A stretch of 32,000 nt of DNA from a bacterium (GTDB taxonomy: Bacteria > UBP7 > UBA6624), in contig PBAU01000002.1 of NCBI GenBank assembly GCA_002716355.1, forward strand, positions 30,001 through 62,000, written 5' to 3'. The position numbers were made by a program, and so were the translations under genes. The notes under the pieces are model-generated. The model had not been told where the DNA came from. It was given only the letters and a program-made list of their open reading frames with translations, and made no database searches. Below are positions 351-29,213 of the stretch, piece after piece. Every line of letters begins with the position of its first letter. Within the stretch, counting starts at the first letter, position 1.

Positions 351-383
351 AGCATCATCACCCTGTATGTTTCTATTCAGGAA

Positions 384-1721: not shown

Positions 1722-1758
1722 AGTTCACAAACCTCCAAAAAAATAGTTACTCTATTAG

Positions 1759-1764: not shown

Positions 1765-1784
1765 GGGATATATTTGTTTTCTGG

Positions 1785-2676: not shown

Positions 2677-2687
2677 TTAATATTGCT

Positions 2688-2770
2688 GCCGGTGTGGCGG
2701 AATGGTAGACGCGACGGACTTAAAATCCGTTGTCCGCAAGGACGTGGGGGTTCGAGTCCCTTCGCCGGCA
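2688..2770 (+). tRNA. tRNA-Leu (anticodon UAA), class II with a long variable arm, no encoded CCA
   Basis: Hand-folded cloverleaf. Acceptor GCCGGTG/CGCCGGC (one G-U pair) with discriminator A. D stem GCG/CGC with loop GAATGGTAGA. Anticodon stem ACGGA/TCCGT with loop CTTAAAA. Variable arm TGTCCGCAAGGACGT (stem GTCC/GGAC). T arm GGGGG-TTCGAGT-CCCTT. Total 83 nt. Confidence 0.9.
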
Positions 2771-2781
2771 TGCTTAATATT

Positions 2782-5302: not shown

Positions 5303-5326
5303 TATTTGGTTTTTGGCTGAAAAAAA

Positions 5327-7375: not shown

Positions 7376-7401
7376 TATTTTTATTGTACCGGTTTTTAAA
7401 T

Positions 7402-8679: not shown

Positions 8680-8682
8680 TTC

Positions 8683-8973
8683 TTACTGCAGTGTAATTTT
8701 ATTTATTTTTATCTTTTGATTTGAAAGTTTTTCGATTATCGATTTTTTATTTTTGTTAAGTGTTTTTTTAATAATTGGGTGACTTTTTTTAACACTAACA
8801 AACAACTCTTGGTTTTTAAGGTTTTTTACCTCTGATTTTTTATAGGTTGGTTCTATTTTTTTTTTCCACACACCCCTAACCAACAAGAGTTCATTTAAGC
8901 CTGGACTGATCTTATTGATTATTTTTTGAATTTCTTTTTTGGGTTTTATACTTTGTTTAAAAATATTTTTCAC
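8683..8973 (-). CDS. DUF721/DciA-like small basic protein
   Basis: 96 aa and Lys-rich. The pattern LLLVRGVWKKKIEPTYKKSEVKNLKNQELFVSVKKS..IKKTL......IIEKL...IKINKI matches the DUF721 layout (W..ivg....s....l..g.L.V.v.s). It sits in the classic position after dnaN, and its start overlaps the dnaN stop by 4 nt. Confidence 0.5.
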   Translation of the reverse strand: MKNIFKQSIKPKKEIQKIINKISPGLNELLLVRGVWKKKIEPTYKKSEVKNLKNQELFVSVKKSHPIIKKTLNKNKKSIIEKLSNQKIKINKITLQ

Positions 8974-10100: not shown

Positions 10101-10185
10101 AAAAGTTATTTTAAAGAATAAATAGGATATTTGTTATTTGATTAATTAAATTAATTTTTATAAAAAACTACTTCTACTACTATTG
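10101..10185. other. AT-rich dnaA-dnaN spacer with a trinucleotide (DnaA-trio-like) array; candidate oriC unwinding module
   Basis: The 85-bp spacer is very AT-rich. 10168-10182 reads CTA CTT CTA CTA CTA, which on the complementary strand is 3'-GAT GAA GAT GAT GAT-5'. It directly follows the run attaattaaattaatttttataaaaaa. I found no consensus DnaA box (TTATCCACA). Confidence 0.3.
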
Positions 10186-11496: not shown

Positions 11497-11613
11497 GAAG
11501 AGTGATTTTAAACATCAAAAAAATAATATATTTTTTTTAAAAAAGGTAACAAAAGAAAACCTAACCAACGTTATTCAACGATAAAAAAAAGATTTATCGT
11601 TTATTATTTTTTC
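11497..11613. other. divergent intergenic region at the gene-orientation switch (dnaA leftward, hbd rightward); candidate oriC/promoter region with a 9-bp inverted repeat
   Basis: AT-rich with A/T homopolymer runs. Inverted repeat AACGATAAA (11577-11585) / TTTATCGTT (11593-11601) with a 7-nt spacer. The only DnaA-box-like sequence is imperfect: TTATTCAAC at 11571-11579, 2 mismatches to TTATNCACA. Confidence 0.3.
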
Positions 11614-13747: not shown

Positions 13748-14365
13748 TTGAAAACTATTTTTCACAATTTTCAACAAAAAAGCTGGATAGACAGTTACTA
13801 CCTGCAGCTACAAGCTACTGAGGATGCTAGAAGGAATGTCGAACATGTATTTTTTTTTGAACATAAAAATGTTATCACCTTAGGAACATCTTCAACCAAA
13901 AGTGATATACCAAATACAGCCAATATTAGGCGTAAAAATATTAGTATTTTTAAAACAAACAGAGGTGGTGAAGCAACCTGGCATGGTGCCGGACAACTTG
14001 TTTTTTATCCAGTTTTAAACATAAAGAAAAGACGGATCAAAGCAACAGAGTTAGTGAAAATAGTGTTACAAGCAACACAAGATGCATTGTTAAAAAAACA
14101 AATTGAAACCTCTATAAACCTCAAGAAACCTGGCTTGTATATTCAAAATAAGAAAATCGTTTCTTTCGGCATGACGATTCAAAAAGGGATAACCATGCAT
14201 GGCGTGTCAGTGAATGTGAACAACAATAATAAAGGATTTGCAGAAATCAAACCTTGTGGGATGCCGCCAAACACTGTTTCTTCCATCAAAGCTGAAACAG
14301 GTAGCAATGAAAGTATAGAATCAATTGCTCAAGAGGTTAAGCTTCATTTGAAAAAGATTTTATGA
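13748..14365 (+). CDS. lipB: octanoyltransferase (lipoyl(octanoyl) transferase)
   Basis: FFFEHKNVITLG, NRGGEATWHGAGQLVFYPVLNI (RGG.T.HGPGQ) and the catalytic Cys context IKPCGM. The TTG start directly abuts the preceding TAA. Confidence 0.85.
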   Translation: MKTIFHNFQQKSWIDSYYLQLQATEDARRNVEHVFFFEHKNVITLGTSSTKSDIPNTANIRRKNISIFKTNRGGEATWHGAGQLVFYPVLNIKKRRIKATELVKIVLQATQDALLKKQIETSINLKKPGLYIQNKKIVSFGMTIQKGITMHGVSVNVNNNNKGFAEIKPCGMPPNTVSSIKAETGSNESIESIAQEVKLHLKKIL

Positions 14366-15204
14366 CACAACATCCTAATTGGACAAAGATTCAAATCAAG
14401 CCTGGTTCTACAAAATCTCTCATTGACCTTTTTGCTGAACCGGAAGAGTTTAAGATAACCACTGTTTGCGAAGAGGCATGTTGTCCCAATTTGCCAGAAT
14501 GCTGGGGCAAGGGTACAGCCACATTTATGTTGCTTGGAGATACCTGCACAAGAGGTTGTCGTTACTGTTCGGTCAAAAAAGGAATACCTGAACCACCTGA
14601 TCCCAATGAACCCGGGGATTTAGCTGAAACCATTCAAAAAATGAATGCAAAATACATTGTTTTAACAATGGTTGATAGAGATGATCTGATCGATGCCGGT
14701 GTCAGTCACATCATGGACACGGTAAACTCTATAAAGAGAATCAACCCCACAACAAAAATAGAATTACTTGTGGGTGATCTGAATGGTGAACCTGAGCTGA
14801 TTAAAGAGGTTGCCCAATCAAACATAAATGTTTTTTCTCACAATATTGAAACTGTAGAAAGGTTGTATCCAAAACTAAGACCACAAGGCAGTTACCAACG
14901 CGCATTAAAAGTTTTAAGAGAGGCAAAAAAAACAGGTTGCCAAACAAAAACTAGCCTGATTGCCGGGATGGGGGAAACAACAGACGAGGTACTGTCTTTT
15001 TTGAAGGATATTAAAACGATTGAAGTGGATATTTTTACATCAGGACAATACTTGAGACCGTCACAAAACCAAGCACCGGTTATAAAACATCGCAGTCCAG
15101 AATGGTTTGAATTTATTGAACAGCAAGCAGAAATGTTAGGGATTAAATCCAAGTGCGGACCCCTGGTAAGATCCAGCTACATGGCTGAAACTCTATATAA
15201 ATAA
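14362..15204 (+). CDS. lipA: lipoyl synthase (radical SAM)
   Basis: Auxiliary cluster motif CEEACCPNLPECW and radical-SAM motif CTRGCRYCSV, both intact. C-terminal SSY. ATGA overlap with lipB. Confidence 0.95.
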   Translation: MTQHPNWTKIQIKPGSTKSLIDLFAEPEEFKITTVCEEACCPNLPECWGKGTATFMLLGDTCTRGCRYCSVKKGIPEPPDPNEPGDLAETIQKMNAKYIVLTMVDRDDLIDAGVSHIMDTVNSIKRINPTTKIELLVGDLNGEPELIKEVAQSNINVFSHNIETVERLYPKLRPQGSYQRALKVLREAKKTGCQTKTSLIAGMGETTDEVLSFLKDIKTIEVDIFTSGQYLRPSQNQAPVIKHRSPEWFEFIEQQAEMLGIKSKCGPLVRSSYMAETLYK

Positions 15205-15244
15205 TACCCCCCCAGGGTATAGTTATTTTTTTTAAAAAAATAAC
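15205..15244 (+). terminator. possible weak intrinsic terminator/attenuator between lipA and the E1 alpha gene
   Basis: Short hairpin TACCC-ccccA-GGGTA (15205-15219), followed by a T-run that is part of a perfect AT-only palindrome GTTATTTTTTT/AAAAAAATAAC (15222-15244). The stems are weak. Confidence 0.25.
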
Positions 15245-15259
15245 ATATAATTACCAGTT

Positions 15260-16399
15260 ATGAATTCGAAAAAAATAAATCAGAAACAAAAAAAATCATT
15301 TGGGGTCGATCAACAAACAGCATTTGAAGTTCTGTATCATCCATTATTGAAAGCCAGGTTGCTTGACGAAAGAATGGTCAAGCTTTTTAATCAAGGTAGA
15401 TTTGGTGGTACATATTTTAGTGGTTGTGGTCAAGAGGCAACAAATGTTGGTGCAGGTGTTCACATGGTTGAAGGTGACATACTTGCTCCATCACATAGGC
15501 AACTAGGGGCCATGGTTGCTAGAGGTATAACCGCTAAAAGAGTGTTAGCACAAGTTTATTCAACAGCTGAATCGCCAGATGGAGCTCAGCAGCACCCATG
15601 TCACTTTGGAGACCCGGAACTTGATATTGTTAGTCCCACAGGACATGTGGCGATACAGGTTGTTTTAGCTGCAGGTTCAGCCTACGCATATCTTTTAGAT
15701 GCGTACAGAAAAGGCGATGTGAAAATCAATTGGGACAAAGATGGAATCGTATGGGCTGGAAACTGGACGCTTAAAAAGGGATCCAAGCTCAATTGCGCTT
15801 TTGCATTTTTTGGAGATGGCGCAACAGCAAAAGGGGATTTTCATGAGTCTGTGAATTTTGCTGGAATACACAAATTACCAGTAATTTACATGGCTGAAAA
15901 TAATATATGGGCAGAGTCTGTTCACGTTACCGAGAATGTGCCTGTTGAGAGGTTAAGCGATAGAGCAGCTGCATATGGAATGCCCGGAGTTACTGTTGAT
16001 GGTCAGAATGTTTTTGAGGTTTATCACGCAGTGCAGGAGGCAGTTGAACGTGCTCGCTCTGGTGGCGGGCCAACCCTTGTTGAATGCTTGACTTATCGTT
16101 ACCATGGACATTCCATGATTGATCCAGCTGATTATCGAACAGATGAAGAGGTTGAAAAATGGAAAAAGAGAGATCCTTTAATTGTTTTTGAACAGGTAGC
16201 TAAAGAGGATGGGATTTGGAGCGATAAACTCGCAAAGGAAACAGAAGACAGAATCAATAATGAGATTGAAGAGGCGATTGATTGGGTTGAAGATGAATCA
16301 ACTAAACCCAAACCCGATCAATTCATTGATGTAACCTTTAGAGATCCAAAATTTAATGATGCAATTCGCAAGAGATGGGAGAAGAGAAAAAATGTCTAG
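15260..16399 (+). CDS. 2-oxoacid dehydrogenase E1 component, alpha subunit (TPP-dependent; PDH/BCKDH/acetoin type not resolved)
   Basis: TPP motif FFGDGATAKGDFHESVNFAGIHKLPVIYMAENNIWAES and YRYHGHSMIDPADYR. Confidence 0.9.
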   Translation: MNSKKINQKQKKSFGVDQQTAFEVLYHPLLKARLLDERMVKLFNQGRFGGTYFSGCGQEATNVGAGVHMVEGDILAPSHRQLGAMVARGITAKRVLAQVYSTAESPDGAQQHPCHFGDPELDIVSPTGHVAIQVVLAAGSAYAYLLDAYRKGDVKINWDKDGIVWAGNWTLKKGSKLNCAFAFFGDGATAKGDFHESVNFAGIHKLPVIYMAENNIWAESVHVTENVPVERLSDRAAAYGMPGVTVDGQNVFEVYHAVQEAVERARSGGGPTLVECLTYRYHGHSMIDPADYRTDEEVEKWKKRDPLIVFEQVAKEDGIWSDKLAKETEDRINNEIEEAIDWVEDESTKPKPDQFIDVTFRDPKFNDAIRKRWEKRKNV

Positions 16400-17423
16400 T
16401 AAAAATATTAGTTATATCCAGGCAATTACAGACACAATGTGGTCTGAAATGGAAATTGATGAAACGGTTTTTGTCTTAGGTCAAGATTGTGGAAGATATG
16501 GAGGCGTGTTTAAAGCCACAGCCTGGAGGTCGGAAAAAGACGGCAAACCTGATTTAAGTAAAAAAATGTATGATGAATTTGGACCATTGAGAGTTCTTGA
16601 TGCACCTTTGGCAGAAAATGCAATCATCGGTGGTGCAATTGGTGCCGCTTTGTCTGGTTATAGGCCAATTGCTGAGATTCAATTTATGGATTTTATTGAT
16701 TGTGCTATGGGCCATATCGTGAACCAAGCAGGCACTATCTCTTTTAAGACTAATGGTAGTTGGTGTTGCCCAATTACAATTCGCACCCCTTATGGTGGAG
16801 GTATTGGCGGTGGTATGACCCATAGCCAAAGCAATGAAGCTTGGTTTTGTCATGCTGGTGGTCTAGTTGTAACCGCACCCAGCACACCAAGAGATGCAGC
16901 AGGGCTTTTAAGATCCTGCATTAGGGCAGATGATCCTTGTGTGTATATTGAGCACAAAGGTTTATATCGAGCTATAACTGGTGATGTGCCTGATGATCCC
17001 AACTTCACTATTGAATTAGGAAAAGGAAAAGTTGTTCGAGAGGGTAGTGATATTACATTGATTTCTTATGGCGCCATGTTGCACAAATGCTTAAGTGTTG
17101 CAGAAAAACTTGAATCTGAAGGCGCCAGTGTTGAGATTATTGATCCTCGAACATTATGGCCAATGGATGAAGATTTAATGATTAACTCTGCTTGTAAAAC
17201 AGGCAGGTGTGTGGTTGTTGCTGAGTCACATGCGGCGTATGGTTTCACTAGCGAGGTTGCCGCAAGAGTGCAAGAGGGTGCCTTTTGGAACCTATTAACA
17301 CCAATTCGTACTATTGCAGGACCAGACACACCCTTCCCTTTTGAACCGGGAATGGAGGCTGCTTATCTGCCTTCAGATGATGAAATATACAACTCTTGTA
17401 AAAGAGCGTTGGGGGACGGATAA
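16392..17423 (+). CDS. 2-oxoacid dehydrogenase E1 component, beta subunit
   Basis: N-terminus ISYIQAITDTMWSEMEIDETVFVLGQDCGRYGGVFKAT, APLAENAIIGGAIGAA and IQFMDF. I trimmed the track start (16356) to the ATG at 16392, giving an 8-nt overlap with E1 alpha. Confidence 0.9.
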   Translation: MSSKNISYIQAITDTMWSEMEIDETVFVLGQDCGRYGGVFKATAWRSEKDGKPDLSKKMYDEFGPLRVLDAPLAENAIIGGAIGAALSGYRPIAEIQFMDFIDCAMGHIVNQAGTISFKTNGSWCCPITIRTPYGGGIGGGMTHSQSNEAWFCHAGGLVVTAPSTPRDAAGLLRSCIRADDPCVYIEHKGLYRAITGDVPDDPNFTIELGKGKVVREGSDITLISYGAMLHKCLSVAEKLESEGASVEIIDPRTLWPMDEDLMINSACKTGRCVVVAESHAAYGFTSEVAARVQEGAFWNLLTPIRTIAGPDTPFPFEPGMEAAYLPSDDEIYNSCKRALGDG

Positions 17424-18661
17424 TGCCAATTAAAGTTCCAGTTCCCGATCTAGGTGTTTCTGTTGTTGAAGCCAAAGTGGCCGAATGGAAGAAAAAAATA
17501 GGTGATGATGTTGTTCGTGATGAAGAGATTGGTATATTGGAAACAGACAAGATAACAACCCCAATTACAGCATTCAAAGAAGGGAAACTTGTAGCACTTT
17601 TTGCAAAACCTGGGGATACCGTTCCCGTGGGACAAACTATAGCAATTATCCAAAAAGTTGGAGAAAATTTATCCCAAGAAGATATTGATAAGTTGAATCC
17701 ACATGGTTCAAAACCGACACCGGAACCGACACCGGAACCGACACCGGAACCCATTAAAACAACTGTTGACACCAAACGTCAAGGCTCAAATCCCCAAACC
17801 CTTAAAACCAGTCCAGCTGTTAGAAGGTATGCGAGTGAGAATGACATTAACCTGGTTGATGTTCAAGGCACTGGCTCTAATGGAAGAATCCAAATGGCTG
17901 ATGTTTTAGCGTTTAAAAAACCAATCAAATCTACGGGTTTAAATTTAGAACCTGATAATACTGAATCCAGAAGTCCTGTCAGCAGCTCCATGGCTGTTAT
18001 GGCAAAACATATGGTTCACTCAGTGTCAACCAGCCCGCATTTTTTAATTGTTGATGAACTTGACATGACTGAAACATTGGCTGTATATAAGAATTTAAAA
18101 CCAAAATTGCAAGAAAGCGGAATCAGGTTAACACTCATGAGCTTTTTTGTCAGAGCAGCAGCACAAGCGCTTAAGGATTTTCCAAGAATGAATGTTTCTC
18201 TTGAAAAAGACACTTTGATAACCAAGAATTATAGAAATATAGGAATGGCAGCTAGTGTTGGGGAAAGTTTGATAGTGCCTGTTATCAAGAATGCTGATCT
18301 TTTAAATATTGAAAATCTTGCAGCTGAAATCAACAGATTGTCTATTGCCGCTCAGGAAAACAAATTAACAATGCAAGACATTACAGGTGGAACATTCACA
18401 ATCACCAATGCAGGCATGTTTGGAGGCCCGTTATTTTCAGCACCTATTATCAATCAGCCTGAAGCGGCTATATTGGGTATTCACACAGTGAAAGAAAGAG
18501 CTGTTGTTGAGAATGGAAATATTGTTGTAAAACCAATGGTTTATGTATCCCTTTCAAGTGATCACAGAATGGTAGATGGCGTTTTAGCTGTTAGGTTTTT
18601 ATGCAGGGTTAAAGAGTTGCTTCAGCATCCAGGCTTAATGGCAACTGGACCTCTTTTATGA
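17423..18661 (+). CDS. dihydrolipoamide acyltransferase (E2) with one lipoyl domain, PSBD and catalytic domain
   Basis: Lipoyl-lysine context ILETDKITTPI. (PTPE)3 linker. PSBD SPAVRRYASENDINLVDVQGTGSNGRI. Catalytic motif SLSSDHRMVDG. TAATG overlap with E1 beta. Confidence 0.93.
   Translation: MPIKVPVPDLGVSVVEAKVAEWKKKIGDDVVRDEEIGILETDKITTPITAFKEGKLVALFAKPGDTVPVGQTIAIIQKVGENLSQEDIDKLNPHGSKPTPEPTPEPTPEPIKTTVDTKRQGSNPQTLKTSPAVRRYASENDINLVDVQGTGSNGRIQMADVLAFKKPIKSTGLNLEPDNTESRSPVSSSMAVMAKHMVHSVSTSPHFLIVDELDMTETLAVYKNLKPKLQESGIRLTLMSFFVRAAAQALKDFPRMNVSLEKDTLITKNYRNIGMAASVGESLIVPVIKNADLLNIENLAAEINRLSIAAQENKLTMQDITGGTFTITNAGMFGGPLFSAPIINQPEAAILGIHTVKERAVVENGNIVVKPMVYVSLSSDHRMVDGVLAVRFLCRVKELLQHPGLMATGPLL
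17712..17751 (+). repeat. 12-nt tandem repeat (AACCGACACCGG x3.3) encoding the Pro/Thr/Glu linker of E2
   Basis: Read directly: aaccgacaccgg aaccgacaccgg aaccgacaccgg aacc. It translates to PTPEPTPEPTPEP. Confidence 0.9.
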
Positions 18662-20034
18662 AATATGACTTGGTTGTGATAGGTGCTGGCCCAGGTGGCT
18701 ATGTGTGTGCTTTACGGGCAGCACAACTCGGCTTAAAGGTAGCTGTTGTTGAAAAGAAAAAAGCGGGTGGAACATGTTTGAATGTTGGTTGCATACCATC
18801 TAAAGCTTTATTGGATTCAACAGAAATTTTTTCTGAAATTTCACCAGGGAACGAACATGGAATAGAGGTCAGCAAAGCTAACATTAACTGGTCGACCCTG
18901 CAATCCAGAAGGGAAAAAATTGTTACCCAATTAACAGGTGGTGTTGAATTTCTTTTAAAAAAGGCTAAGGTTGATTATTATCAAGGATTTGCAGATGTGA
19001 AATCTTGTTATACGGTTGTTGTTGGCAGGAATAATCTTGCAACTAAAAATGTTGTTTTGGCCACCGGATCCACACCTGTAGAAATTCCATTTTTGCCATT
19101 TGATGGAGAACATGTTATAAGTTCAACCGAAGCTCTTAATCAATTCAATATACCCAAAAGTCTTATTGTTGTTGGAGGAGGTTATATAGGGTTAGAAATG
19201 GCCAGTGTTTACAGCCGAATCGGAACCCATGTCACAGTAATTGAGATGATGGATCGGATTGTTCCATTGATGGATACAGATATAAGCAAGCAGTTGCAAA
19301 AATCATTAAGAAAACAAGGCATCAAGTTTAAAACATCAACCAAGGTGACCGATTGCAAGAAAACAAAAAATAAAATTATTTTAAATTTAGAAAAAAACAA
19401 AAAAACAAGCACACAGGAGGCTGATCAAGTTCTTGTTGCTGTAGGTCGTCGGCCTAATGCAGGGGGTATTAACCTCAATGCTTTAGGAGTCACAATGGAT
19501 GAGAGGGGGTTTGTTTCTGTAAATCAAAACATGGAAACATCCATACCTGGTATTTATGCCATAGGCGATTTGGTTCCAGGTCCCATGCTTGCACATAAAG
19601 CCAGTGAGGAAGGGGTGGTTGTTGCCGAAAGAATTGCTGGCAAGCAAACAACACTTGACTATAGCTTGATTCCATCTGTAGTTTACACACACCCTGAAGG
19701 CGCTTCTATTGGTAGAACCGCAGATGAGCTTAAAAAAGCCAACGTAGAATTTAAAACAGGTATGTTTCCGTTTTCTGCATCCGGAAGAGCTATGGCTATA
19801 GGTTGTACTGAAGGTTTTGTTAAGGTGTTAGCAGATTCCAAAACCGATAAGGTTTTAGGGGTCCATATATTAGGGCCGAAAGCTTCAGAATTAATATCTG
19901 AAGCAGCAATGGTGATGGGCTTCTGTGGCACTGCTGAAGACATAGGTGTGTTTATTCACGCGCACCCAACACTTTCGGAAGCATTAAAAGAAGCCGCTCT
20001 TGAAGCTTCTGGTCATGGTGCGATTCATACCTAA
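18658..20034 (+). CDS. lpdA: dihydrolipoyl dehydrogenase (E3)
   Basis: FAD motif VVIGAGPGGY, redox disulfide GGTCLNVGCIPSK, NAD motif VVGGGYIGLE, and C-terminal HAHPTLSE. Confidence 0.95.
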   Translation: MKYDLVVIGAGPGGYVCALRAAQLGLKVAVVEKKKAGGTCLNVGCIPSKALLDSTEIFSEISPGNEHGIEVSKANINWSTLQSRREKIVTQLTGGVEFLLKKAKVDYYQGFADVKSCYTVVVGRNNLATKNVVLATGSTPVEIPFLPFDGEHVISSTEALNQFNIPKSLIVVGGGYIGLEMASVYSRIGTHVTVIEMMDRIVPLMDTDISKQLQKSLRKQGIKFKTSTKVTDCKKTKNKIILNLEKNKKTSTQEADQVLVAVGRRPNAGGINLNALGVTMDERGFVSVNQNMETSIPGIYAIGDLVPGPMLAHKASEEGVVVAERIAGKQTTLDYSLIPSVVYTHPEGASIGRTADELKKANVEFKTGMFPFSASGRAMAIGCTEGFVKVLADSKTDKVLGVHILGPKASELISEAAMVMGFCGTAEDIGVFIHAHPTLSEALKEAALEASGHGAIHT

Positions 20035-20044
20035 GGAGAAAACA

Positions 20045-20224
20045 ATGTTTGGATTTATTTTTGCTTTAGGACCAACAGAAATTGCTTTAATTGCAGTTGT
20101 TGTTTTGGTTCTTTTTGGACCCAAAAAAGTTACAGAATTCGCAAGATCTCTAGGAAGAACTAGTGGTGAATTCAAAAAAGGACTTGAAGAGGGTAAAAAG
20201 ACAACAAAAGATAAAGAGGAGTAA
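20045..20224 (+). CDS. tatA: twin-arginine translocase TatA/E family protein
   Basis: MFGFIFALGPTEIALIAVVVLVLFGPKKVTEFARSLGRTSGEFKKG (the LFGPKK hinge is typical). AAGGAG lies 6-7 nt upstream of the ATG at 20045. The track start at 20000 overlaps lpdA. Confidence 0.9.
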   Translation: MFGFIFALGPTEIALIAVVVLVLFGPKKVTEFARSLGRTSGEFKKGLEEGKKTTKDKEE

Positions 20225-20233
20225 AGCTGCTGT

Positions 20234-20944
20234 ATGCAAGACAAAAAAATGCCTCTGTCCGAGCATTTTGCTGATCTGCAAAAAACTTTATTAAACAGTC
20301 TTCTTTATTGTTTTTTTGCCTCTGTTTTGCTGTCCTTTTTTCATAAGGAATTATTAATTGCTTTTCAAAAACCACTAAACAATGTCGGAATTACTGCGTT
20401 AAATGTTTTATCTCCACAAGAGGGGTTCCTCATCCCCATCAAGTTGGTTTTAATGTGTGGTTTAATTGTGGCAACACCTTTGATTGTTAGAGAGGTTACC
20501 TTATTTGCCTGGCCCGCATTAAGGCAAAATGAAAAACAAATACTTCAAACTTTTGTAATCCCAAGTTTTTTAATTGCACTTGTTGCAGCGTTTTTTGCTT
20601 GGCAGGTTTTAATACCAATATCAATTGAATTTCTGCTCAAGGCAACAACAAACAATAACCTACAAGCAACATGGACATTGCAATATTGGTTTGTTTTTGT
20701 TCAATCTATGTTGATTGCCTCTGTGGCTGCTTTTCAACTGCCAATAGTCATGGGGGTTTTAGCTAAATTCGGCTTAATTGACTCACATACGGTCCGGGAA
20801 AAAGGCCCACATGCAATTATTGGGCTATTGATATTATCTGGTTTTATAACCCCTCCAGATGTTGTCACGCAGATCATTATCGCCATACCATTAATCCTTC
20901 TGTTTTATTTCAGTATTTTCATAGTCAAGGCAAACGAGGATTAA
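20234..20944 (+). CDS. tatC: twin-arginine translocase subunit TatC
   Basis: N-terminus MPLSEHFADLQKTLL (TatC-type HL.ELR region). Six hydrophobic segments. ITPPDVVTQ (the conserved P.D..sQ motif). Confidence 0.88.
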   Translation: MQDKKMPLSEHFADLQKTLLNSLLYCFFASVLLSFFHKELLIAFQKPLNNVGITALNVLSPQEGFLIPIKLVLMCGLIVATPLIVREVTLFAWPALRQNEKQILQTFVIPSFLIALVAAFFAWQVLIPISIEFLLKATTNNNLQATWTLQYWFVFVQSMLIASVAAFQLPIVMGVLAKFGLIDSHTVREKGPHAIIGLLILSGFITPPDVVTQIIIAIPLILLFYFSIFIVKANED

Positions 20945-21013: not shown

Positions 21014-23335
21014 ATGGCACGAATAGGTGTTTTTCTTAGCAAAGAGGGAAAAGGTTTAGATCCGCTTAACCTACAAACCATTGCTGACAGATTGGTTGAG
21101 GAAGTGCAGGAGATAAACCATGTTTTTATACATGAAGACCTCAACACAGTTCAAGGTTTGGAAGCAATATCACAAGAGATCAAAAATCAAGATATTGGCT
21201 ATGTTGTTATCGGTTGTGGCTCTATTGATCAAAGGGAAGAGAATATCAGAAAAACATTGAATACAGCTGGCATTAACGAATACCTTTTGGAGGTTGTTAA
21301 TCTTAAAGAAATGGTAGCTAACGTGCATTCAGAAGAGCCCGAGAAAGCCAATGAAAAAGCTTTTCAGCTATTGAAAACAGCAGTTATCAAGGTTGAGCAA
21401 AGTAAACCTTTAGAAAAAACACCAATGAGGGTGGAACAACAAGTTTTAGTTGTTGGCGGCGGTGTTGCAGGCATGACTGCTTCTTTGAGAATTGCAGATG
21501 CTGGCTACAGTGTTGTTTTAGTTGAAAAGTCACCTGCATTAGGTGGAAAAGTTGCCTCTCTCAAAAATCTTTGGCCAAAACTCGAAGAGGCAGATGACTT
21601 AATGAGGAATCTTTCAATCAGTTGTCATCAACATGAAAATATAGTTATTTATGATTATTCAGAAGTTAAATCTATAGACGGAGTTCGTGGGGATTTTGAT
21701 GTTGAAATAGTCAGAAAACCAAGATTTGTTCAAAGTCAAAAAATTGTAAATTTTGAAAAAATTACAGAATCATTAAAAACGGATTTTCCAAATAAGCACA
21801 CCGGAGGCAGGACGGTGAACAAGGTTCTTTATCAACCATACGCAGGCTGTGTCCCACCATTGTTTTTGATAGACCCAGAAAATATAAATCATCCAGATGT
21901 CAAAAAGTTAATCACACTTGTTCCTGATGGAACTGTGAATCAGAACGAAAAGGAAAAAATCGTTCATGAAAAAGCAGGTGCTGTGATTATGGCTTTTGGA
22001 GCTGGGATGATGGATTGTTCTGGCTTAACAAATTTAACTGCTGCAAATAGTGAAAATGTACACAGTGCTAGTGATTTTGAATTTTTGAATTTCAAAAAAG
22101 ACGAAGAAATGTCGTTGTTATGGGTTGCAGATGCAGGAAGCAATGATCCCAAGAACGGTGTTGCTTACGCTTCCGAAGTGCCTTTGATGACCTGTGTCAA
22201 ACAGGCTATTTTTGCTAAAAAAATGTCTAATGGAAAAATTCACACAACAGTTGTTTACTCAGATAGGAGATCCAGAACAAAAGGATATGAAGAATTTATC
22301 AAAACCGCTGAGGAAAAATACCAGGTACAGATGGTTAGAGGCGCTGTTTCAAATGTAACTTCAAAGTCAAACGGGTTGTCTGTCAGCTTGCACGATTTAA
22401 TACAGGGCAAAGAGCAAAAGGTATCAGTTGACAAGGTTGTTTTGGCACAAGAGGTTGTTGCACACGATGATTCACAACATCTAGCAAGTATTGTTGATAT
22501 AGGTCGTGACGAAACAGGCTTTCTTGCTGAAACCCATCCTTCTCTGGAGCCATGTTCAACCAGTAATTCTGGAGTTTTTGTTTGTGGAGACTGTGCGTCT
22601 CCCGGTGATATCAGAGCTGCTGTTTTGACAGCTGAATCAGCAGTTGCTAAAGCTATGGCCGTTTTGGCCCAAAAAACAAGTGAGCCCTACAGGTTAAAAC
22701 AAAAAGATGAGCAACTTGCACGATTTGATGCTCCAGCAAAAGAGGTTTCTCCTGAGAGCTTTCAAACAAATGATGAAGGTGGCATGAATTACACAAGATT
22801 AAATAATGTTTTTGGTAAAACTGAAAGCGGTGTGTCCATACCAGCCTCACCAACCAGAAACATTGAACTTGCTGGTTGGGAGCTTTCTAAGTCAATTGCA
22901 GAAATTGAAAATATTTGGACAGATGCAAAAAATGACAACTGGGAACCAAGAATAACAGGATTTGCATCACAGTATGGTGGTTATCCACTTTTGGAAACAC
23001 TTGGAAGAGAGGAGGTTTCTTATTCATCTTGTTTTAGATTTCTGAGAGTGCGCTCAACAGCACATCTGGATCCACTCCTTGTCCTCAAAAGCTTCTTTAA
23101 TGGTGCAGATGGTGTGTTTATTATTGGTGGACCTTTAGGCAAAGGCAAGTTTCACAACGACAACTACCTTGCAAAAAGAAGATTTAAAGCATTAGAAGGG
23201 GTGCTTGATGCTGGTGGGATTGAGCCAGATAGAGTCAAGATTTTATTTGTAGATTCTCACCAAATTGATGAAGTTGCTGATCAGTTGCAAAAATTCCATA
23301 ATGCTGTCTCTAGCTTAGGCCCTTTAGGTATTTGA
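21014..23335 (+). CDS. HdrA-like FAD flavoprotein fused to a C-terminal MvhD/FlpD-like domain; canonical Fe-S cysteine ligands absent
   Basis: GGAGG lies ~7 nt upstream of the ATG. The bacterial HdrA N-domain pattern is recognisable but Cys-poor: IGVFLSKEGKG replaces IGVFiCHCGxNI, and EVVNLKEMVANVH replaces NIRExCSWVH. The FAD dinucleotide motif VLVVGGGVAGMTASLRIADAGYSVVLVEKSPALGGK and the C-terminal GVFVCGDCASPGDIRAAV are kept. The C-terminal 130 aa align to MvhD (see findings). Confidence 0.75.
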   Translation: MARIGVFLSKEGKGLDPLNLQTIADRLVEEVQEINHVFIHEDLNTVQGLEAISQEIKNQDIGYVVIGCGSIDQREENIRKTLNTAGINEYLLEVVNLKEMVANVHSEEPEKANEKAFQLLKTAVIKVEQSKPLEKTPMRVEQQVLVVGGGVAGMTASLRIADAGYSVVLVEKSPALGGKVASLKNLWPKLEEADDLMRNLSISCHQHENIVIYDYSEVKSIDGVRGDFDVEIVRKPRFVQSQKIVNFEKITESLKTDFPNKHTGGRTVNKVLYQPYAGCVPPLFLIDPENINHPDVKKLITLVPDGTVNQNEKEKIVHEKAGAVIMAFGAGMMDCSGLTNLTAANSENVHSASDFEFLNFKKDEEMSLLWVADAGSNDPKNGVAYASEVPLMTCVKQAIFAKKMSNGKIHTTVVYSDRRSRTKGYEEFIKTAEEKYQVQMVRGAVSNVTSKSNGLSVSLHDLIQGKEQKVSVDKVVLAQEVVAHDDSQHLASIVDIGRDETGFLAETHPSLEPCSTSNSGVFVCGDCASPGDIRAAVLTAESAVAKAMAVLAQKTSEPYRLKQKDEQLARFDAPAKEVSPESFQTNDEGGMNYTRLNNVFGKTESGVSIPASPTRNIELAGWELSKSIAEIENIWTDAKNDNWEPRITGFASQYGGYPLLETLGREEVSYSSCFRFLRVRSTAHLDPLLVLKSFFNGADGVFIIGGPLGKGKFHNDNYLAKRRFKALEGVLDAGGIEPDRVKILFVDSHQIDEVADQLQKFHNAVSSLGPLGI

Positions 23336-23338
23336 AAC

Positions 23339-24232
23339 ATGAATGAAATGAGAATAACAATCCAACGAGAAGCCAGAAGGCTTTTACAGCTGCAAAAAGT
23401 CAGCGTTGTTATAGGTTATGAGGTTGGTCCATACCCTGGCACGACCGCTCCCTGTTTCGCTTTCACCCCAGATGACGCTCAAAGAATTGTTTTCAATAGC
23501 TTTTCGTCTATCAATTTAGCCGTTTATCTTCCAGGCATTACTGGAAATGTTGGCATAGTGGCCACACCTGCAACTGTAAGATCCATCAAAGAGCTCGAAA
23601 AAGACGGCTTGGTGAATCGTAAAAATCTGCATATTATTGGTGTGAAATTTCCAGGAATATTAGATCCTCGACATTTAAATGTTGACAGAGAGAACGAAAA
23701 TACGTTATCAGTCAATGAGCATCCAGAAGCTTTATGGGAGTGGGCACTTCATGATCTTTACGAGGAGCCAGAAGATTATGACATACTTGTTGAGCCCAGG
23801 TGGATGAATGACCTCAGTAAAGCCGGCAAACTAAAAAAACCCACCCCAAACCGTACCAGCGTTGAAAGGTTAGAGCAGATGACTCATCACGAAAGAAGGC
23901 TATACTGGATGAGTTATTTTGAAAAACATAGGCATTCAGACCATAATAAAAATTTATTTCCTTCCACTTATGCGGGAGGAGACCATTTAGAAAAGTTTAA
24001 ATATATCAAATCTGCATATAGCTCGAACGAGCTTTTTTACGAACATCTTTCATGGGTTTACCAATCGATGGGTCGAGCTTCTGGCTTCGATCTCTCAGAC
24101 CTTACAGAGGACATGAATCAAATACCCCTTTCAACAATTCGAGCTTGGGCTGCTAGAGAGTTTAGAAAAAATTTTAATTACAGGCCAGGTGGGGAAGAGC
24201 CAAATCCATTACTGAAAAAGGAAAACATATAA
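23339..24232 (+). CDS. FrhB/FdhB-like protein, cysteine-depleted (one Cys in 297 aa); function unknown
   Basis: N-terminal half: ARRLLQLQKVSVVIGYEV........NVGIVATPATVRSIKELEKDGLVNRKNLHIIGVKFPG. This resembles the F420-hydrogenase-beta-like pattern (..vd.vig ... vavvGtPCqi.al..l......l.iGl.C.G) with both Cys substituted. It starts 3 nt after the HdrA-like stop. I do not recognise the C-terminal half. Confidence 0.55.
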   Translation: MNEMRITIQREARRLLQLQKVSVVIGYEVGPYPGTTAPCFAFTPDDAQRIVFNSFSSINLAVYLPGITGNVGIVATPATVRSIKELEKDGLVNRKNLHIIGVKFPGILDPRHLNVDRENENTLSVNEHPEALWEWALHDLYEEPEDYDILVEPRWMNDLSKAGKLKKPTPNRTSVERLEQMTHHERRLYWMSYFEKHRHSDHNKNLFPSTYAGGDHLEKFKYIKSAYSSNELFYEHLSWVYQSMGRASGFDLSDLTEDMNQIPLSTIRAWAAREFRKNFNYRPGGEEPNPLLKKENI

Positions 24233-24233
24233 C

Positions 24234-25256
24234 ATGAGCGACTATATTTTGTCAAAAGCTAAATTGAAATATTGGTTAGAGGATGTCAGAAAACGAAATG
24301 AACTATGGGCACCCGTTGGATCCAAAGGCGCTGTAAGTTATTTGAAAAATCCAAAAGGTGAAAATGTTGCAACAGATTTTACAAATAGTTTGGATTGTCC
24401 AAAGTATATATTTTGCCCACAGCAAGATGCCATATGCAACTATGAGATACAAGGAAGAGGCAAGGTTGCTATTGAGGAAGTTGAGCTCGATGTGACTCCT
24501 AGAGTTGTATTTGGCTTACGGCCACCAGACATTAGAGGCATCGAAATTCTCGATGCTTACCTGTTGAAAGATCAAATTGATCGGAGATACGAGGCAAGGC
24601 GAAAAAATACAATAAATATTTGTCTTGGTTACCATAACCCACCTCCTTGCTGTTTCGCAGAGTCTGTAGGTGTCGATCTTTTTCCCAAGAGTGGCTCTGA
24701 CATTTTGTTAACTGATATTGGTAGGAGTTATTATGTTGAAACACTTTCTGAAAAAGGAGATAGCCTGATCTCGGAACATTTCAATGAAGCTGATGATATT
24801 GTTCGAAATGAAGCCTGGGATATACAGAAGGGAAGTGAAGGAAAAACAAATTTTGATTTAAATTTGAATCGTTGGCAGGATTTCACTGATACTGAAATTT
24901 ACACTTTGCCGTATTGGGATGAAATTTATTTGGGCATTATTGCTGATTCTGTCGCAACCAGGTATTTTTACTCAGGAACTTATTTTAAGATTGTTGATGT
25001 TAACAGTGGAAACAAGGGCACAAGGTATAAAACCTGGACAACAATGTATTCTCCAGGCTTTTCAACATTGGCAAATGGTTATGACTACAAGCCAAGCCTC
25101 AAGGAAAAATTTAAAGATTGGATATTAGAAATGTTTCATTTTTTTCCAAAAAGACATGGTTTTATTGGCTGTTCAGGTGCGCACAGGTGCATTGCAGGCA
25201 TGACCACCAAGCATGACCTGAGAAAAATTATTTCTAATGTGGACTTTGGAATATGA
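24234..25256 (+). CDS. sulfhydrogenase beta-subunit (HydB) / AsrA-like protein with degenerate Fe-S motifs
   Basis: The N-terminal two thirds match the HydB/AsrA pattern: ELWAPV, CPKYIFCPQQD (PPKkfffP), RVVFGLRPPDIRGIEILD (iiFGvr.CDi.gl.iLD), YEARRKNT, CLGYHNPPPCCFAESVG (C....CFC.s.G) and DILLTDIGRSYYVETLSEKG. The two C-terminal CxxCxxCxxxCP ferredoxin motifs are absent. Confidence 0.7.
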   Translation: MSDYILSKAKLKYWLEDVRKRNELWAPVGSKGAVSYLKNPKGENVATDFTNSLDCPKYIFCPQQDAICNYEIQGRGKVAIEEVELDVTPRVVFGLRPPDIRGIEILDAYLLKDQIDRRYEARRKNTINICLGYHNPPPCCFAESVGVDLFPKSGSDILLTDIGRSYYVETLSEKGDSLISEHFNEADDIVRNEAWDIQKGSEGKTNFDLNLNRWQDFTDTEIYTLPYWDEIYLGIIADSVATRYFYSGTYFKIVDVNSGNKGTRYKTWTTMYSPGFSTLANGYDYKPSLKEKFKDWILEMFHFFPKRHGFIGCSGAHRCIAGMTTKHDLRKIISNVDFGI

Positions 25257-26029
25257 ATTTAGTACCAAAGATAGCAAATATAAAAAATACAGAACGGGAT
25301 GGTCGTTTAGGGTCAATATCATTTGATTTTGATGGGGACCTGAAGGCCGGACAGGTTTTCAAGATAGGGACCTTTGGAAAAGGAGAAACAACTGCTTGGG
25401 TCATAGATGCGGAAGATAAAACCGTAACCGTTTCGTTTCTGGATAACAACCCTGTCACACATAAAATCATGCTCCTTCCCACAGATGAATGCATTACTGT
25501 AAGAGGGCCATTTGGCAATGGTTTTTCACTTTTAGATGAAAGAAATATTTTATTAATTAGTCAAGATGATGGAATATTAAGCCAAAAGAAACTTATTAAT
25601 GATTTGCTCCAAAATGGTAATCAGGTCAGCTTGCTCCACTTCACCTCTTTTCCAAAAGATATATTTATGAGCTCTTCACTTAAAAAAGCTGTATCAGATG
25701 ACTCTCCTATCAATGGTGAAATTATCGATATGACAAAAAAAGGACCACAGGATTTAGATACGTTTATCAAATCTTGCATCAAGGCAAGTTACACCTCCGG
25801 AATAAACGCAGTGGCTCTATCAGGCAATGAGAATTTTCAGCAGTCTGTGTCGAGGGTTCTGGAGAAAACAATGATTAAAGATAAAAGCATACAAATTTTA
25901 TTTAATCGTAATTTTGTTTCAGGAATGGGTTGGTCTAACAAGGATCTTTACGGTACCACAAACATATGGAAAGAAGGGCCAGTATTTACATTAGATCAGG
26001 TTCGAAGATTCCCAGGTGTATTCATTTAA
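25253..26029 (+). CDS. sulfhydrogenase gamma (HydG) / AsrB / PyrK-like FNR-fold protein lacking nucleotide-binding and 2Fe-2S motifs
   Basis: LKAGQVFKIGTFGKGE (f.pGQf..l..pg.ge), ITVRGPFGNGFSL (l.vrGPyGnGF) and WKEGPVFTLDQV (C.dGPVF) place it in the family. LLISQDDGILSQ replaces llvaGGtGiaP, and NFVSGMGWSNKDLYG replaces M.CG.G.C..C. ATGA overlap with the upstream gene. Confidence 0.7.
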   Translation: MNLVPKIANIKNTERDGRLGSISFDFDGDLKAGQVFKIGTFGKGETTAWVIDAEDKTVTVSFLDNNPVTHKIMLLPTDECITVRGPFGNGFSLLDERNILLISQDDGILSQKKLINDLLQNGNQVSLLHFTSFPKDIFMSSSLKKAVSDDSPINGEIIDMTKKGPQDLDTFIKSCIKASYTSGINAVALSGNENFQQSVSRVLEKTMIKDKSIQILFNRNFVSGMGWSNKDLYGTTNIWKEGPVFTLDQVRRFPGVFI

Positions 26030-27130: not shown

Positions 27131-28054
27131 ATGAATCGTTTAAAAAGCATAAATCTACGTTTTTTGTTGATGCCCTTTGTTCTGGCTTTTATTTTTGCTT
27201 TTGAGGATATTGACACTAAAGAGAAGTCAAGCGAGGAGTTATGGGTTGTAAATTTTTTAGCTGAAGGAGTGGTTTTACCACCCGGTCAGATAGATTTGCC
27301 AAAAATAACTATCGATTACACAAAAACTGACCATGCCAAAATTGCTAAGAATCTTTTGGGTGCAGACATAGAGGCAGAAACCTCTGTCGGTTTAACCAGA
27401 GTTATCGATCAGGGTTTTCAAACATATGCAACCGAGGACGGCCGAGAATTATTGGTTTTTCCTCATGGTGGAATCACATTTAACCATCCTTTTGCCGGGG
27501 TGCATGAGTTGTTCCCATTAACCCGCACACAGGCAGAAAGTGTTCTGGATATTTTTAATAACAATTTTAATTATTTTCCAGAAGATGCCTCACTGGTCAA
27601 TACAGGAGAAATTAAACATCCAGAATATCAGTCTTTCAACAACAGTCAAGGATTACCGTTTGGTTACATTTATGAATATGGGCGTTATTTTAAAAATGTT
27701 CTCATTAAAAATGATGTAGTCAGGGCTTTAGTGGTTGGCGGAAGAGTTTGGGAATTTTCATTTTCCTGGGGCGATCAGCCTGTTGAGATTGAAGACACTG
27801 AGGCAACAATAATCCCAGCATGGTCTGCAGTTAAGGATGCCATCGAGTATGCGTATAGGAATTTTTACGCTGGAGAATATTACGCAGATGTATTTGTTAC
27901 CAAGGTTCAACTTGTTTATACTTTTGATGGCCTACAGGAGGCATGGAAAAAGGATGAACCAAAAAGATTAGTTCCGGCATGGGTGGTCCAGATAAATAAA
28001 TCGAATGAAATTATCTTAGAAGCTTTCACCGGTCAAGTTATTCCCATTTATTAA
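27131..28054 (+). CDS. hypothetical exported or membrane-anchored protein, possibly with a PepSY-like C-terminal domain
   Basis: N-terminal hydrophobic segment LRFLLMPFVLAFIFAF. The C-terminal segment IIPAWSAVKDAIEYAY....VTKVQLVY......LVPAWVVQINKSNEIILEAFTGQVI fits the PepSY-type pattern (..A...a....v..v.l......paW.v......v.vdA.tG.v). Confidence 0.5.
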   Translation: MNRLKSINLRFLLMPFVLAFIFAFEDIDTKEKSSEELWVVNFLAEGVVLPPGQIDLPKITIDYTKTDHAKIAKNLLGADIEAETSVGLTRVIDQGFQTYATEDGRELLVFPHGGITFNHPFAGVHELFPLTRTQAESVLDIFNNNFNYFPEDASLVNTGEIKHPEYQSFNNSQGLPFGYIYEYGRYFKNVLIKNDVVRALVVGGRVWEFSFSWGDQPVEIEDTEATIIPAWSAVKDAIEYAYRNFYAGEYYADVFVTKVQLVYTFDGLQEAWKKDEPKRLVPAWVVQINKSNEIILEAFTGQVIPIY

Positions 28055-28100: not shown

Positions 28101-29213
28101 ATGAGTTCCACCGAAGCAGGAGATGTTGTTGCCCAGGCTATACTTCAAAAATACCCTAAATCAAATGTATTTGTTAAGAATTTTGCAGATGGTGGTGAGG
28201 GAACGGCAGATGTCCTGTTGGATTATTTCGATCATGAAGCTCACAAGGTTAAAACCCAAGGTGCCAACGGGAAGGATATTGATGCTTATTGGTATTTTTT
28301 GAAAAAAGAAAAAGTAGCCCTGCTAGAAATGGCTTCAATTGTCGGGATTTCAATGATTCCCAAGTCCGAATTAGATCCAGAGGCTTTAAGCACTTGCGGT
28401 CTTGCTCCAGTTATTATTGACATTCTTGAAAAAGGTATTAGAAAAATCTGGTTTACTGTTGGCGGAACCTCAACGGTTGATGCTGGACTTGGCTTGCTGA
28501 AAGGGATGGGCGTTTCCACACGGGAAGGGACATTTCCTAATTCATTATTAGCAGTAAAGAAAGATATTTTTTTTGATTTTAAAAATTTAGATTCGATGAT
28601 TTCAGATCTTAAAATACACCCAGCAAAAGGCAGCTGTTTGTTTCCTGATGTTTTTTTTGATATAATAGCTGATGTTCGCGCTCCTCTTTTAGGTAAGCGA
28701 GGTGCTGTTTTGGCTTTTGGCAAGCAAAAGGGTGCTACCCCTAAAAATATTCCTATTTTGGAACAAGGGATGGCTGATTTTGCTTGTATGGTTGAAGCCA
28801 AAGTCGAGGACTCGACCTTTTTGCAAACAAAAGGTTTGGGTGCTGCTGGCGGCATCGCTCTTGGGCTGGCCTTGCTTTTTAACGTGAATATTAAAAATGG
28901 AGCTGATTTTGTTATTGACAAAATGGGGCTCAGGGACGAGATGAGTAATTTTGATTTTGTGATAACAGGAGAGGGACAGTTTAACTCTCAAACCAAACAA
29001 GGGAAAGGGCCATGGTCTATTGCATCACTAGCTGTAAGTAATAGCACCCCAGTTTTGATTATTAGTGGTTTGAAAATTAAAGAAAGAAACAAAACAAAAG
29101 ATTTTTCTTTCTTGGAGGTTTCTCAGACAGTCCCAAGAAACAAAAAAGAGGCACAATTAAATCTTTTCCAAGCTATGAGTGGATGGCTTGATGATAATGA
29201 GGTGAAAAAATGA
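28101..29213 (+). CDS. glxK: glycerate kinase (GlxK/GarK family); the true start is probably upstream of the first ATG
   Basis: FADGGEGTADVLL and GEGQFNSQTKQGKGP (GEG..D.Qt..GK.P), with the right overall length. The conserved N-terminal motif (IALDSFKGT) is encoded in frame immediately upstream at 28074-28100, with no ATG/GTG/TTG available (see finding). Confidence 0.85.
   Translation: MSSTEAGDVVAQAILQKYPKSNVFVKNFADGGEGTADVLLDYFDHEAHKVKTQGANGKDIDAYWYFLKKEKVALLEMASIVGISMIPKSELDPEALSTCGLAPVIIDILEKGIRKIWFTVGGTSTVDAGLGLLKGMGVSTREGTFPNSLLAVKKDIFFDFKNLDSMISDLKIHPAKGSCLFPDVFFDIIADVRAPLLGKRGAVLAFGKQKGATPKNIPILEQGMADFACMVEAKVEDSTFLQTKGLGAAGGIALGLALLFNVNIKNGADFVIDKMGLRDEMSNFDFVITGEGQFNSQTKQGKGPWSIASLAVSNSTPVLIISGLKIKERNKTKDFSFLEVSQTVPRNKKEAQLNLFQAMSGWLDDNEVKK

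Follow-up and report, generated by a model that had tools for sequence, protein, structure and literature searches.

HdrA-type complexes operate as a long iron-sulfur (Fe-S) wire that feeds a bifurcating flavin. In the solved complexes, MvhD together with HdrA's N-terminal and C-terminal domains forms a mobile arm, and this arm docks the module for electron input onto HdrA (PMC12350162, PMC13580544), and the passage of electrons from the [2Fe-2S] cluster of MvhD to the HdrA flavin is still unresolved (PMC13580544). The HdrA2 protein of Methanosarcina acetivorans contains approximately 20 Fe per molecule, held in four [4Fe-4S] clusters and one [2Fe-2S] cluster (PMC5296606). Desulfovibrio FlxABCD-HdrABC is described as an NADH dehydrogenase/heterodisulfide reductase, and the Flx/Hdr unit as an NAD(P)H-linked module known from anaerobes (Ramos et al. 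2015, as cited in PMC5296606 and PMC5861303). Here, we describe an operon related to these systems in a 32,000-nucleotide (nt) stretch of bacterial DNA (contig PBAU01000002.1, positions 30,001 to 62,000; hereafter the window, whose own numbering is used throughout). Its first gene, gene A (21014..23335, + strand), is preceded by a GGAGG ribosome-binding site and encodes a 773-amino-acid (aa) HdrA2-type fusion of an HdrA body with a C-terminal MvhD-like domain; genes B, C and D follow on the same strand. This operon preserves the folds and subunit set of an HdrA-MvhD-Flx-type complex, and alignment indicates that the cysteine (Cys) ligands of the clusters have been replaced almost completely across all four proteins.

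The MvhD/FlpD-like domain of gene A lies at 22940..23335 (+ strand) and comprises aa 643-773, encoded by 22940-23332, plus the stop codon. An earlier sequence-only reading of the window had quoted this peptide, which is exactly what the translation gives, and had likened it to MvhD nearly residue for residue. The comparison bears this out: the Pfam profile PF02662 (FlpD, 'methyl-viologen-reducing hydrogenase delta subunit') spanned the domain over its full 123 positions (1-123; E=5e-24; 85 bits against a cut-off of 22.3), and phmmer against the Protein Data Bank (PDB) aligned it without gaps on MvhD of Methanothermococcus thermolithotrophicus (5ODC_D; E=4e-19, 33% identity), as well as on five further solved MvhD/ElpC chains. 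A first AlphaFold2 (AF2) model of the whole of A, built from a 24-sequence alignment, was poor in the MvhD part, which six sequences covered; the domain was hence re-modelled with a 121-sequence alignment, yielding a mean predicted local distance difference test score (pLDDT) of 92.5. Foldseek superposed the domain model on 5ODH_D, 5ODC_D and 8RVU_F with a template modelling (TM) score of 0.93 and a root-mean-square deviation of 1.0-1.1 Å. The earlier statement that the scaffold is kept is thus upheld by the full Pfam match, the gapless alignment and the model.

The ligands, by contrast, are gone. None of the five family-conserved Cys columns retains Cys, their places being taken by S, G, S, G and G, in line with the earlier claim that every ligand position of the [2Fe-2S] cluster is substituted; these five columns include Cys16, an extra Cys that is not a ligand (PMC13580544). 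His68 and Asp71 of MvhD, which are conserved and placed between the MvhD cluster and the Cys pair of HdrA (PMC13580544), are replaced by P and K, respectively, at positions where the family has H in 92 of 121 domains and D or E in 115 of 121. Two details of the sequence-only reading needed correction. In its pairing of FCCNWC with FASQYG, the loss of conserved Cys stands, although the first Cys of that motif is not a conserved position (Leu in 76/121 domains), so that the conserved columns number five rather than six. In the third motif the Cys loss also stands, while the proposed pairing was one residue off: VGGCHLGDCHY corresponds to IIGGPLGKGKF, which gives C to G, H68 to P, D71 to K and C to G. 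An alternative register that preserved Cys, and a lack of any PF02662 match, were both looked for by alignment and hidden Markov model, and neither was found; given the gapless alignment and the superposition at TM 0.93, no register shift can restore Cys to the domain. The inability to bind the canonical cluster, as earlier proposed, is borne out, as the Cys columns hold neither Cys nor another plausible ligand. Since all Cys columns and the His68/Asp71 pair are replaced, the domain would lack the [2Fe-2S] cluster and be unable to serve as the last relay to the bifurcating flavin adenine dinucleotide (FAD). The domain is therefore a member of the MvhD/FlpD family by sequence and fold, yet lacks the [2Fe-2S] ligands by which the family is functionally defined.

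We next compared the domain with its relatives. A word-index search with the 131-aa domain alone gave 4 matches and was superseded by a profile search, which retrieved 297 proteins; the search profile was built solely from Cys-depleted MvhD-type domains, and the resulting survey is therefore biased toward Cys-poor relatives. The survey set consisted of 121 FlpD domains, drawn from the top 117 matches, two canonical matches of an earlier domain search and the window. Even in this set, all five Cys were present in 89/121 domains, and the remaining three Cys were all present in a further 22, which form an N-terminally truncated class fused to a helix-turn-helix (HTH) domain. One substitution or gap was found in five domains and a pattern of three out of five Cys, that of L010 described below, in three. 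Only two domains, those of the window and its partial relative P0121, retained none of the five. The Cys depletion of the window domain is far beyond chance. In the literature, we found no account of a Cys-free MvhD or HdrA, nor of a whole stripped complex. Public databases name the Cys-less proteins P0005 and P0121 'hydrogenase iron-sulfur subunit', and the window protein, MBG97587.1, 'hypothetical protein [bacterium]'. Separately, proteins P0369-P0392, which come from outside the window, are approximately 230 aa long and carry an FlpD domain without the N-terminal Cys pair, with the other three Cys present, fused to a C-terminal ArsR-type HTH (PF01022); these may be redox- or cluster-sensing transcription factors.

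The same loss extends through the HdrA body of gene A. This body, formed by the N-terminal 640 residues, matched 5ODC_A with E=3e-68, and residues 3-771 of the protein aligned to positions 1-774 of the 777 in the HdrA2 profile NF040770, with a score of 389 bits that lies below the cut-off of 1100. The AF2 model of A superposed on 8RVU_A and 5ODC_A with target-normalised TM scores of 0.82-0.87 over approximately 650 columns. Gene A encodes 9 Cys overall, and just C204, C514 and C527 are invariant in the window clade. In an alignment of 24 sequences, comprising the clade and 18 canonical HdrA proteins, 28 columns hold Cys in at least 70% of the canonical members; no clade member has Cys in 27 of them, including all six [4Fe-4S] sites and the CxxC on the flavin side. 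Gene A is thus of HdrA2-type architecture, but it scores below the HdrA/HdrA2 equivalog cut-off (NF040770, NF041778) and lacks the ligand set of every cluster.

The replacements differ from domain to domain. The N-terminal domain (21014..21418, + strand; aa 1-135), homologous to the N-terminal [4Fe-4S] domain of HdrA, has S9, E11, N44 and G69, plus V101, at former Cys positions, and evolves with a nonsynonymous-to-synonymous rate ratio (dN/dS) of 0.02. Within the thioredoxin-reductase-like FAD core (21419..22672, + strand; aa 136-553), the CxxC beside the flavin has become E192 and D195, and the CVGSRD..YCSxxCC site reads D373, A386, P390 and L391. The degenerate ferredoxin-like domain inserted into this core (21719..22003, + strand; aa ~236-330; pLDDT 77-94) carries aliphatic or aromatic residues in all eight former Cys columns (I244, F247, I250, L254, I291, V296, L299 and V303), which implies that the cluster cavities are filled by hydrophobic side chains. 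In the degenerate C-terminal ferredoxin-like domain (22673..22933, + strand; aa 554-640), the eight columns are occupied by A, D, A, S, K, S, S and S, and its ESGxSxPASPTRNxEL stretch is conserved in the clade, with SIPASP standing opposite CVPACP of the A protein of L011. Recoding or selenocysteine was considered and rejected, as many different ordinary residues occupy the former Cys columns.

The flavin site has fared differently in the alignment. The GxGxxG motif (G148-G153), E171, G177-G178, E356 and K396 are invariant in 24/24 aligned sequences, and the last two are the equivalents of HdrA E356 and K409, taken as the signature of the bifurcating flavin, whose reactivity they tune (PMC12054007). 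By this comparison, the FAD-binding fingerprint of HdrA and its flavin-tuning Glu/Lys pair are retained in A. A redox-active disulfide between C514 and C527 beside the FAD was also considered. We rejected it: both residues flank the 'T..GD' β-strand, which makes their adjacency unlikely, and C527 is found in 13/18 canonical HdrA proteins as well.

Genes B, C and D follow A with 1-4-nt spacers or overlaps and are translationally coupled to it. Gene B (23339..24232, + strand; 297 aa) encodes a degenerate member of a family whose N-terminal half is of FrhB/FdhB type and whose C-terminal half is a ferredoxin with 2x[4Fe-4S]. The protein itself matched no Pfam or NCBIfam family, and comparison with the PDB by sequence and by profile gave just a sub-threshold hint of FdhB (E=1.5 and 0.11); phmmer against 1.84 billion representatives retrieved 302 relatives of approximately 310 aa, bearing FrhB_FdhB_C and Fer4 domains. 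Its closest Cys-bearing relatives are encoded on two metagenome contigs, L010 (E=6e-39) and L011 (E=1e-33). B keeps none of the 14 Cys of its L010 homologue, with PCD changed to PAT, NCPG to KFPG and both CxxCxxCxxxCP motifs lost, and C39 alone is clade-invariant.

Gene C (24234..25256, + strand; 340 aa) is HydB/ShyB/AsrA-like (sulfhydrogenase β), being homologous to the β subunit of Pyrococcus furiosus sulfhydrogenase I (9NEZ_B, E=3e-13) and to AsrA. Of the eight Cys in the L010 homologue it retains two: nothing is left of the first CxxCxxCxxxCP motif, and C313 and C319 remain from the second. These two residues belong to a clade-invariant motif at 25170-25202, G-C-S-G-A-H-R-C-I-A-G-M (C313 to M323), in which H317 and M323 are likewise invariant. 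A further pair, C139-C140 (24648-24653, in PPPCC), is invariant and specific to the clade; as it is missing from the Cys-bearing L010 protein, it has been gained. Judging from these sequences, C139-C140 and the C313 to M323 motif could together constitute a new metal or disulfide site. Gene D (25253..26029, + strand; 258 aa) is HydG/AsrB/PyrK-like (sulfhydrogenase γ; 9NEZ_C, E=5e-6) and keeps 0/5 Cys, having lost all those of the [2Fe-2S] cluster. Its NAD(P)-binding motif has changed from NGGLAP to QDDGIL, a degenerate GxGxxP, and its FAD motif from HYFSS to AWVID, which abolishes the R/HxYS type. D is the fastest-evolving subunit, with 36% identity to its counterpart in the related locus L009.

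Counted by subunit, the clade-invariant Cys number three in A, one in B, four in C and none in D. The alignments show that no Fe-S ligand set survives in A, B or D and that two residues are left of those in C. Because the loss affects the whole HdrA body (27/28 Cys columns) and the three partner subunits, the original interpretation was too narrow; the evidence supports, as the proper unit, a cofactor-stripped four-subunit complex rather than a lone odd domain.

The two metagenome contigs with Cys-bearing B relatives document how this state may have arisen. L010 has the gene order of the window and encodes an HdrA fragment in which the ferredoxin Cys are present, a separate 139-aa MvhD, and B, C and D; its B has 14 Cys, its C has 8 in two complete motifs and its D has 5, in a DHODB_Fe-S_bind domain. 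The MvhD of L010 has three out of five Cys and already displays the window-clade signature 'G-x-P-L-x-x-G-x-F'. On L011 (positions 1-4705), NfnA- and NfnB-like genes precede a 702-aa HdrA::MvhD fusion and a Cys-rich B homologue. In this fusion, which is without the inserted ferredoxin domain, Cys remain only as the eight of the C-terminal ferredoxin, and the MvhD domain is Cys-less. The comparison shows L010 to represent a Cys-bearing ancestral template and L011 an intermediate or an independent stage of cluster loss. The subfamily as a whole shows a graded loss of clusters that possibly arose more than once, with the window clade as its extreme.

We then examined how widely and how well the operon is conserved. 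The ferredoxin-less architecture is common to only five protein clusters among 5.8 billion. Genome and metagenome scans kept returning the same handful of lineages, with identities of 91%, 75-78% and 50%, and the partial P0121, and a further metagenome scan added only four loci, all of sub-lineages already found. The relatives are all metagenome-assembled genomes (MAGs) of uncultured marine organisms (Tara Oceans; Black Sea NIOZ-UU106). In the 90%-identity cluster of MBG97587.1, one member is labelled 'Gemmatimonadetes bacterium' and the others plain 'bacterium', and we treat the phylum as uncertain. Each of the seven loci, even at 50% identity, has all four genes with their lengths and their overlapping start and stop codons. 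For the window and its 91%-identical relative, the Nei-Gojobori method gave dN/dS values of 0.040 for A as a whole, 0.011 for its MvhD-like domain, 0.021 for B, 0.032 for C and 0.036 for D, which is still constrained, with synonymous divergence (dS) of about 0.9-2.5; across the operon the overall range was 0.01-0.06. Within A, conservation is highest in the MvhD-like domain, where 59% of the columns are invariant, and the residues that stand in place of Cys are mostly invariant across the clade. All four genes are therefore shown to be under strong purifying selection, and an operon conserved to 50% identity with such dN/dS values is not a pseudogene. Its GC content equals that of the flanks, which marks it as native. 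The neighbouring LipA and aconitase-family protein are genuine Fe-S enzymes with normal Cys content; the host is thus able to make clusters, and the loss is confined to the operon.

Taken together, we consider it probable, with some reserve, that the MvhD-like domain is a cluster-less docking module within a repurposed, wholly or almost Fe-S-free flavoprotein complex. According to this model, the operon would descend from an electron-bifurcating module of the Flx/Hdr type fed by electrons from NAD(P)H. In a marine lineage, the entire wire would have been removed, leaving conserved hydrophobic or small polar residues at the cluster sites. The MvhD-like domain would no longer relay electrons and would survive as a docking or 'mobile-arm' module that holds partners on HdrA; a docking or conformational role of this kind is the most economical account of what selection preserves. 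The assembly would then work as a flavoprotein independent, or nearly independent, of Fe-S clusters, in which the HdrA-type FAD, apparently the sole clearly surviving redox centre, exchanges electrons with its substrates, whether small molecules or proteins, directly and not via clusters, possibly alongside a residual four-Cys site in subunit C. For Methanosarcina HdrA2, a hydride donor has been proposed to react directly at the flavin (PMC12054007).

Several points weigh against this model. For all members it is built on comparison of sequences and on predicted structures, and the alignments used for AF2 consist mostly of canonical homologues, which biases the models toward the family fold. 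FAD binding by A is read from motifs, and the physical assembly of A, B, C and D from the operon structure and from homology to solved complexes. With D devoid of an NAD(P)H site and the complex devoid of clusters, the electron donor and acceptor cannot be named from sequence. In addition, the four invariant Cys of C (C139, C140, C313 and C319) could bind a metal centre, in which case the term 'Fe-S-free' may fail for the complex as a whole.

The most serious rival, which we nevertheless regard as unlikely, is a fully non-catalytic assembly, a 'pseudoenzyme' in which all redox function is gone, including that of the HdrA flavin, and the scaffold has become structural, regulatory or chaperone-like, with a possible link to the neighbouring Tat or 2-oxoacid dehydrogenase/lipoylation genes. 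The loss of all routes of electron entry and exit speaks for such an outcome, as do the vanished nucleotide motifs of D and the failure to find an HdrB/HdrC-type catalytic subunit within ±10 kb at any locus; the lipB-lipA-E1-E2-E3-tatA-tatC synteny, held at 50% identity, and the overlap of tatC with gene A in locus L001 would accommodate the proposed link. However, synteny beside the replication origin may reflect a mere old gene string, and invariance of the FAD fingerprint and of the flavin-tuning E356 and K396 in both the clade and canonical HdrA would be unexpected if the flavin were structural or absent. In a different proposal, subunit C has acquired a new non-canonical centre from C139-C140 and C313-x3-H317-x-C319-x3-M323, be it a cluster, a mononuclear metal or a redox-active disulfide, that would cooperate with the HdrA FAD. 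The four Cys of C are invariant across 50% divergence, the CC pair is a gain relative to L010, and His317 and Met323 are invariant too; even so, no path from C to the FAD is evident, as the would-be bridges, B and the MvhD domain, have no clusters, and we hold this proposal to be decidedly improbable.

Two explanations remain. Fe-S clusters are ligated by His, Asp or Ser in some proteins, and by this precedent the clusters might persist, held by residues other than Cys or by the Cys of another subunit. Most of the replacements (G, A, P, L, I, V, F and K) are non-ligands, and those in the inserted ferredoxin domain are hydrophobic, while the invariant Cys of the whole complex are too few for such sharing, so that we give this explanation very little credence. 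Massive loss of catalytic residues is also typical of a decaying relic or pseudogene, and an assembly or binning artefact might imitate it, but at least seven independent MAG or metagenome lineages, as well as independent assemblies, carry intact open reading frames (ORFs) of the same length, dN/dS remains at 0.01-0.06 with dS above 0.9, and the start/stop overlaps are conserved. Decay and artefact are thereby effectively refuted. The cluster-less docking module within a flavoprotein complex remains the reading that we favour. In a bolder form of it, which we put forward tentatively and consider doubtful as a whole, the operon would encode a functional enzyme in which the HdrA bifurcation scaffold has been re-invented without clusters: the FAD would react directly, the other modules would be conformational or docking elements, possibly joined by a new Cys/His/Met site in C, and the whole would derive from an ancient anaerobic Fe-S machine whose present form, in a pelagic bacterium, spares iron or tolerates oxygen.

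The genomic setting of the operon is itself conserved. The tatA and tatC genes (20000..20944, + strand) lie immediately upstream of A, a conserved context that need not belong to the system, and the stop codon of tatC overlaps the start of gene A in L001. They end a co-directional string of lipB/lplA-like, lipA, 2-oxoacid dehydrogenase E1α, E1β, E2, E3, tatA and tatC genes, at 13748-20944 of the window and 2856-10004 of L001, and the string from lipB to tatC is present at all seven loci, still so at 50% protein identity. A functional tie between the operon and this string is possible. No HdrB/HdrC-type (CCG-domain) homologue was found in the 32-kb window, nor within ±10 kb in L001 or L009. On the opposite strand, gyrB, dnaN and a divergent dnaA occupy approximately 5300-11500, and the cumulative GC-skew minimum falls near 10 kb, which together place the chromosomal replication origin there; the operon lies approximately 10 kb from this dnaA/dnaN/gyrB region. 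A scan for promoters and terminators did no better than on shuffled sequences, PADLOC reported nothing defence-related beyond a generic Rossmann motif, and an Rfam search over the window returned one tRNA and nothing else.

Further features of the window were recorded in passing. An HTH_3 (XRE-type) regulator ORF at 2563-3255 (+ strand) overlaps a tRNA gene on the same strand (2688-2770, +), and the true start of the regulator is probably downstream of the tRNA. Two ORFs without a Pfam match flank a glycerate kinase gene, in positions that are conserved in L001: one at 27131-28054 (+ strand) encodes 307 aa without Cys (302 aa in L001), and the other, at 29210-32000 (+ strand), encodes more than 930 aa and runs off the window (964 aa in L001). 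At 384-1721 (- strand), a 445-aa Cys-free protein carries an N-terminal S-layer homology (SLH) domain, which may be helpful for the taxonomic or cell-envelope placement of the host.

The operon amounts to a natural experiment, in which more than 50 cluster-ligating Cys have been replaced over four subunits while the folds, the operon and the flavin site have stayed under strong purifying selection. The clade could thus be used to separate the structural from the electron-transfer roles of the MvhD and ferredoxin domains, and may show an HdrA flavin acting alone. The series from L010 through L011 to the window clade would document a stepwise loss of cofactors, possibly tied to iron scarcity or oxygen exposure in the ocean. 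There is also an annotation trap: metagenomic surveys would count such genes as Hdr/Mvh, and hence as anaerobic energy metabolism, though that chemistry is impossible for them. Collectively, these observations suggest that an Fe-S electron-wire scaffold has been put to some other use in a rare marine bacterial lineage.

Set beside the known systems, the window domain shares with MvhD/FlpD (5ODC_D, 7BKB_F and 8RVU_F), the [2Fe-2S] connector of the Mvh-Hdr, Fdh-Hdr and Elp-Hdr complexes, its fold, length, register and coupling to HdrA, here by fusion; it differs in lacking the five conserved Cys, His68 and Asp71. Gene A resembles HdrA2 of the M. acetivorans HdrA2B2C2 complex in its N-terminal domain, its thioredoxin-reductase-like FAD core with an inserted ferredoxin domain, its C-terminal ferredoxin and MvhD domains and its FAD motifs, whereas it has none of the ligand sets, and the adjoining genes are FrhB-like and sulfhydrogenase βγ-like rather than HdrB2 and HdrC2. 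With FlxABCD-HdrABC and the βγ subunits of P. furiosus sulfhydrogenase I (9NEZ_B and 9NEZ_C), the operon has in common an MvhD-like protein, two subunits of Fe-S type and a PyrK/HydG-like subunit, associated with HdrA. We take the MvhD-like domain to correspond to FlxD, B to FlxC, C to FlxB/HydB and D to FlxA. The window operon departs from that system in the loss of its cluster ligands save 2/8 in C, in a D subunit without NAD(P)H and FAD motifs, in the absence of HdrBC and in a gene order that is reversed relative to flxABCD-hdrABC.

The sHdrA protein of Hyphomicrobium denitrificans (6TJR) is, like gene A, an HdrA-like flavoprotein of thioredoxin-reductase fold that operates outside methanogenesis with reduced clusters, and the two are recognisably related (Foldseek E=3e-21; phmmer E=1e-11). 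It is a minimal core of approximately 340 aa that is described as keeping one [4Fe-4S] cluster. sHdrA has been placed in class 'A0' (PMC12054007). While it is the most cofactor-reduced HdrA characterised, gene A differs in retaining all accessory domains as cluster-less scaffolds, without any cluster. Loss of a cofactor from single subunits has precedents in Hdr-type complexes: ElpA is a truncated FdhA without molybdopterin (PMC12350162), and Cys-less Molybdop/FhcB-like proteins have been described (PMC12054007). As in the window operon, a redox subunit has there given up its cofactor and been retained as a structural part; in those cases, however, the change is confined to a single subunit, with the remainder of the electron path intact, whereas in the window complex the path has been lost in all four.

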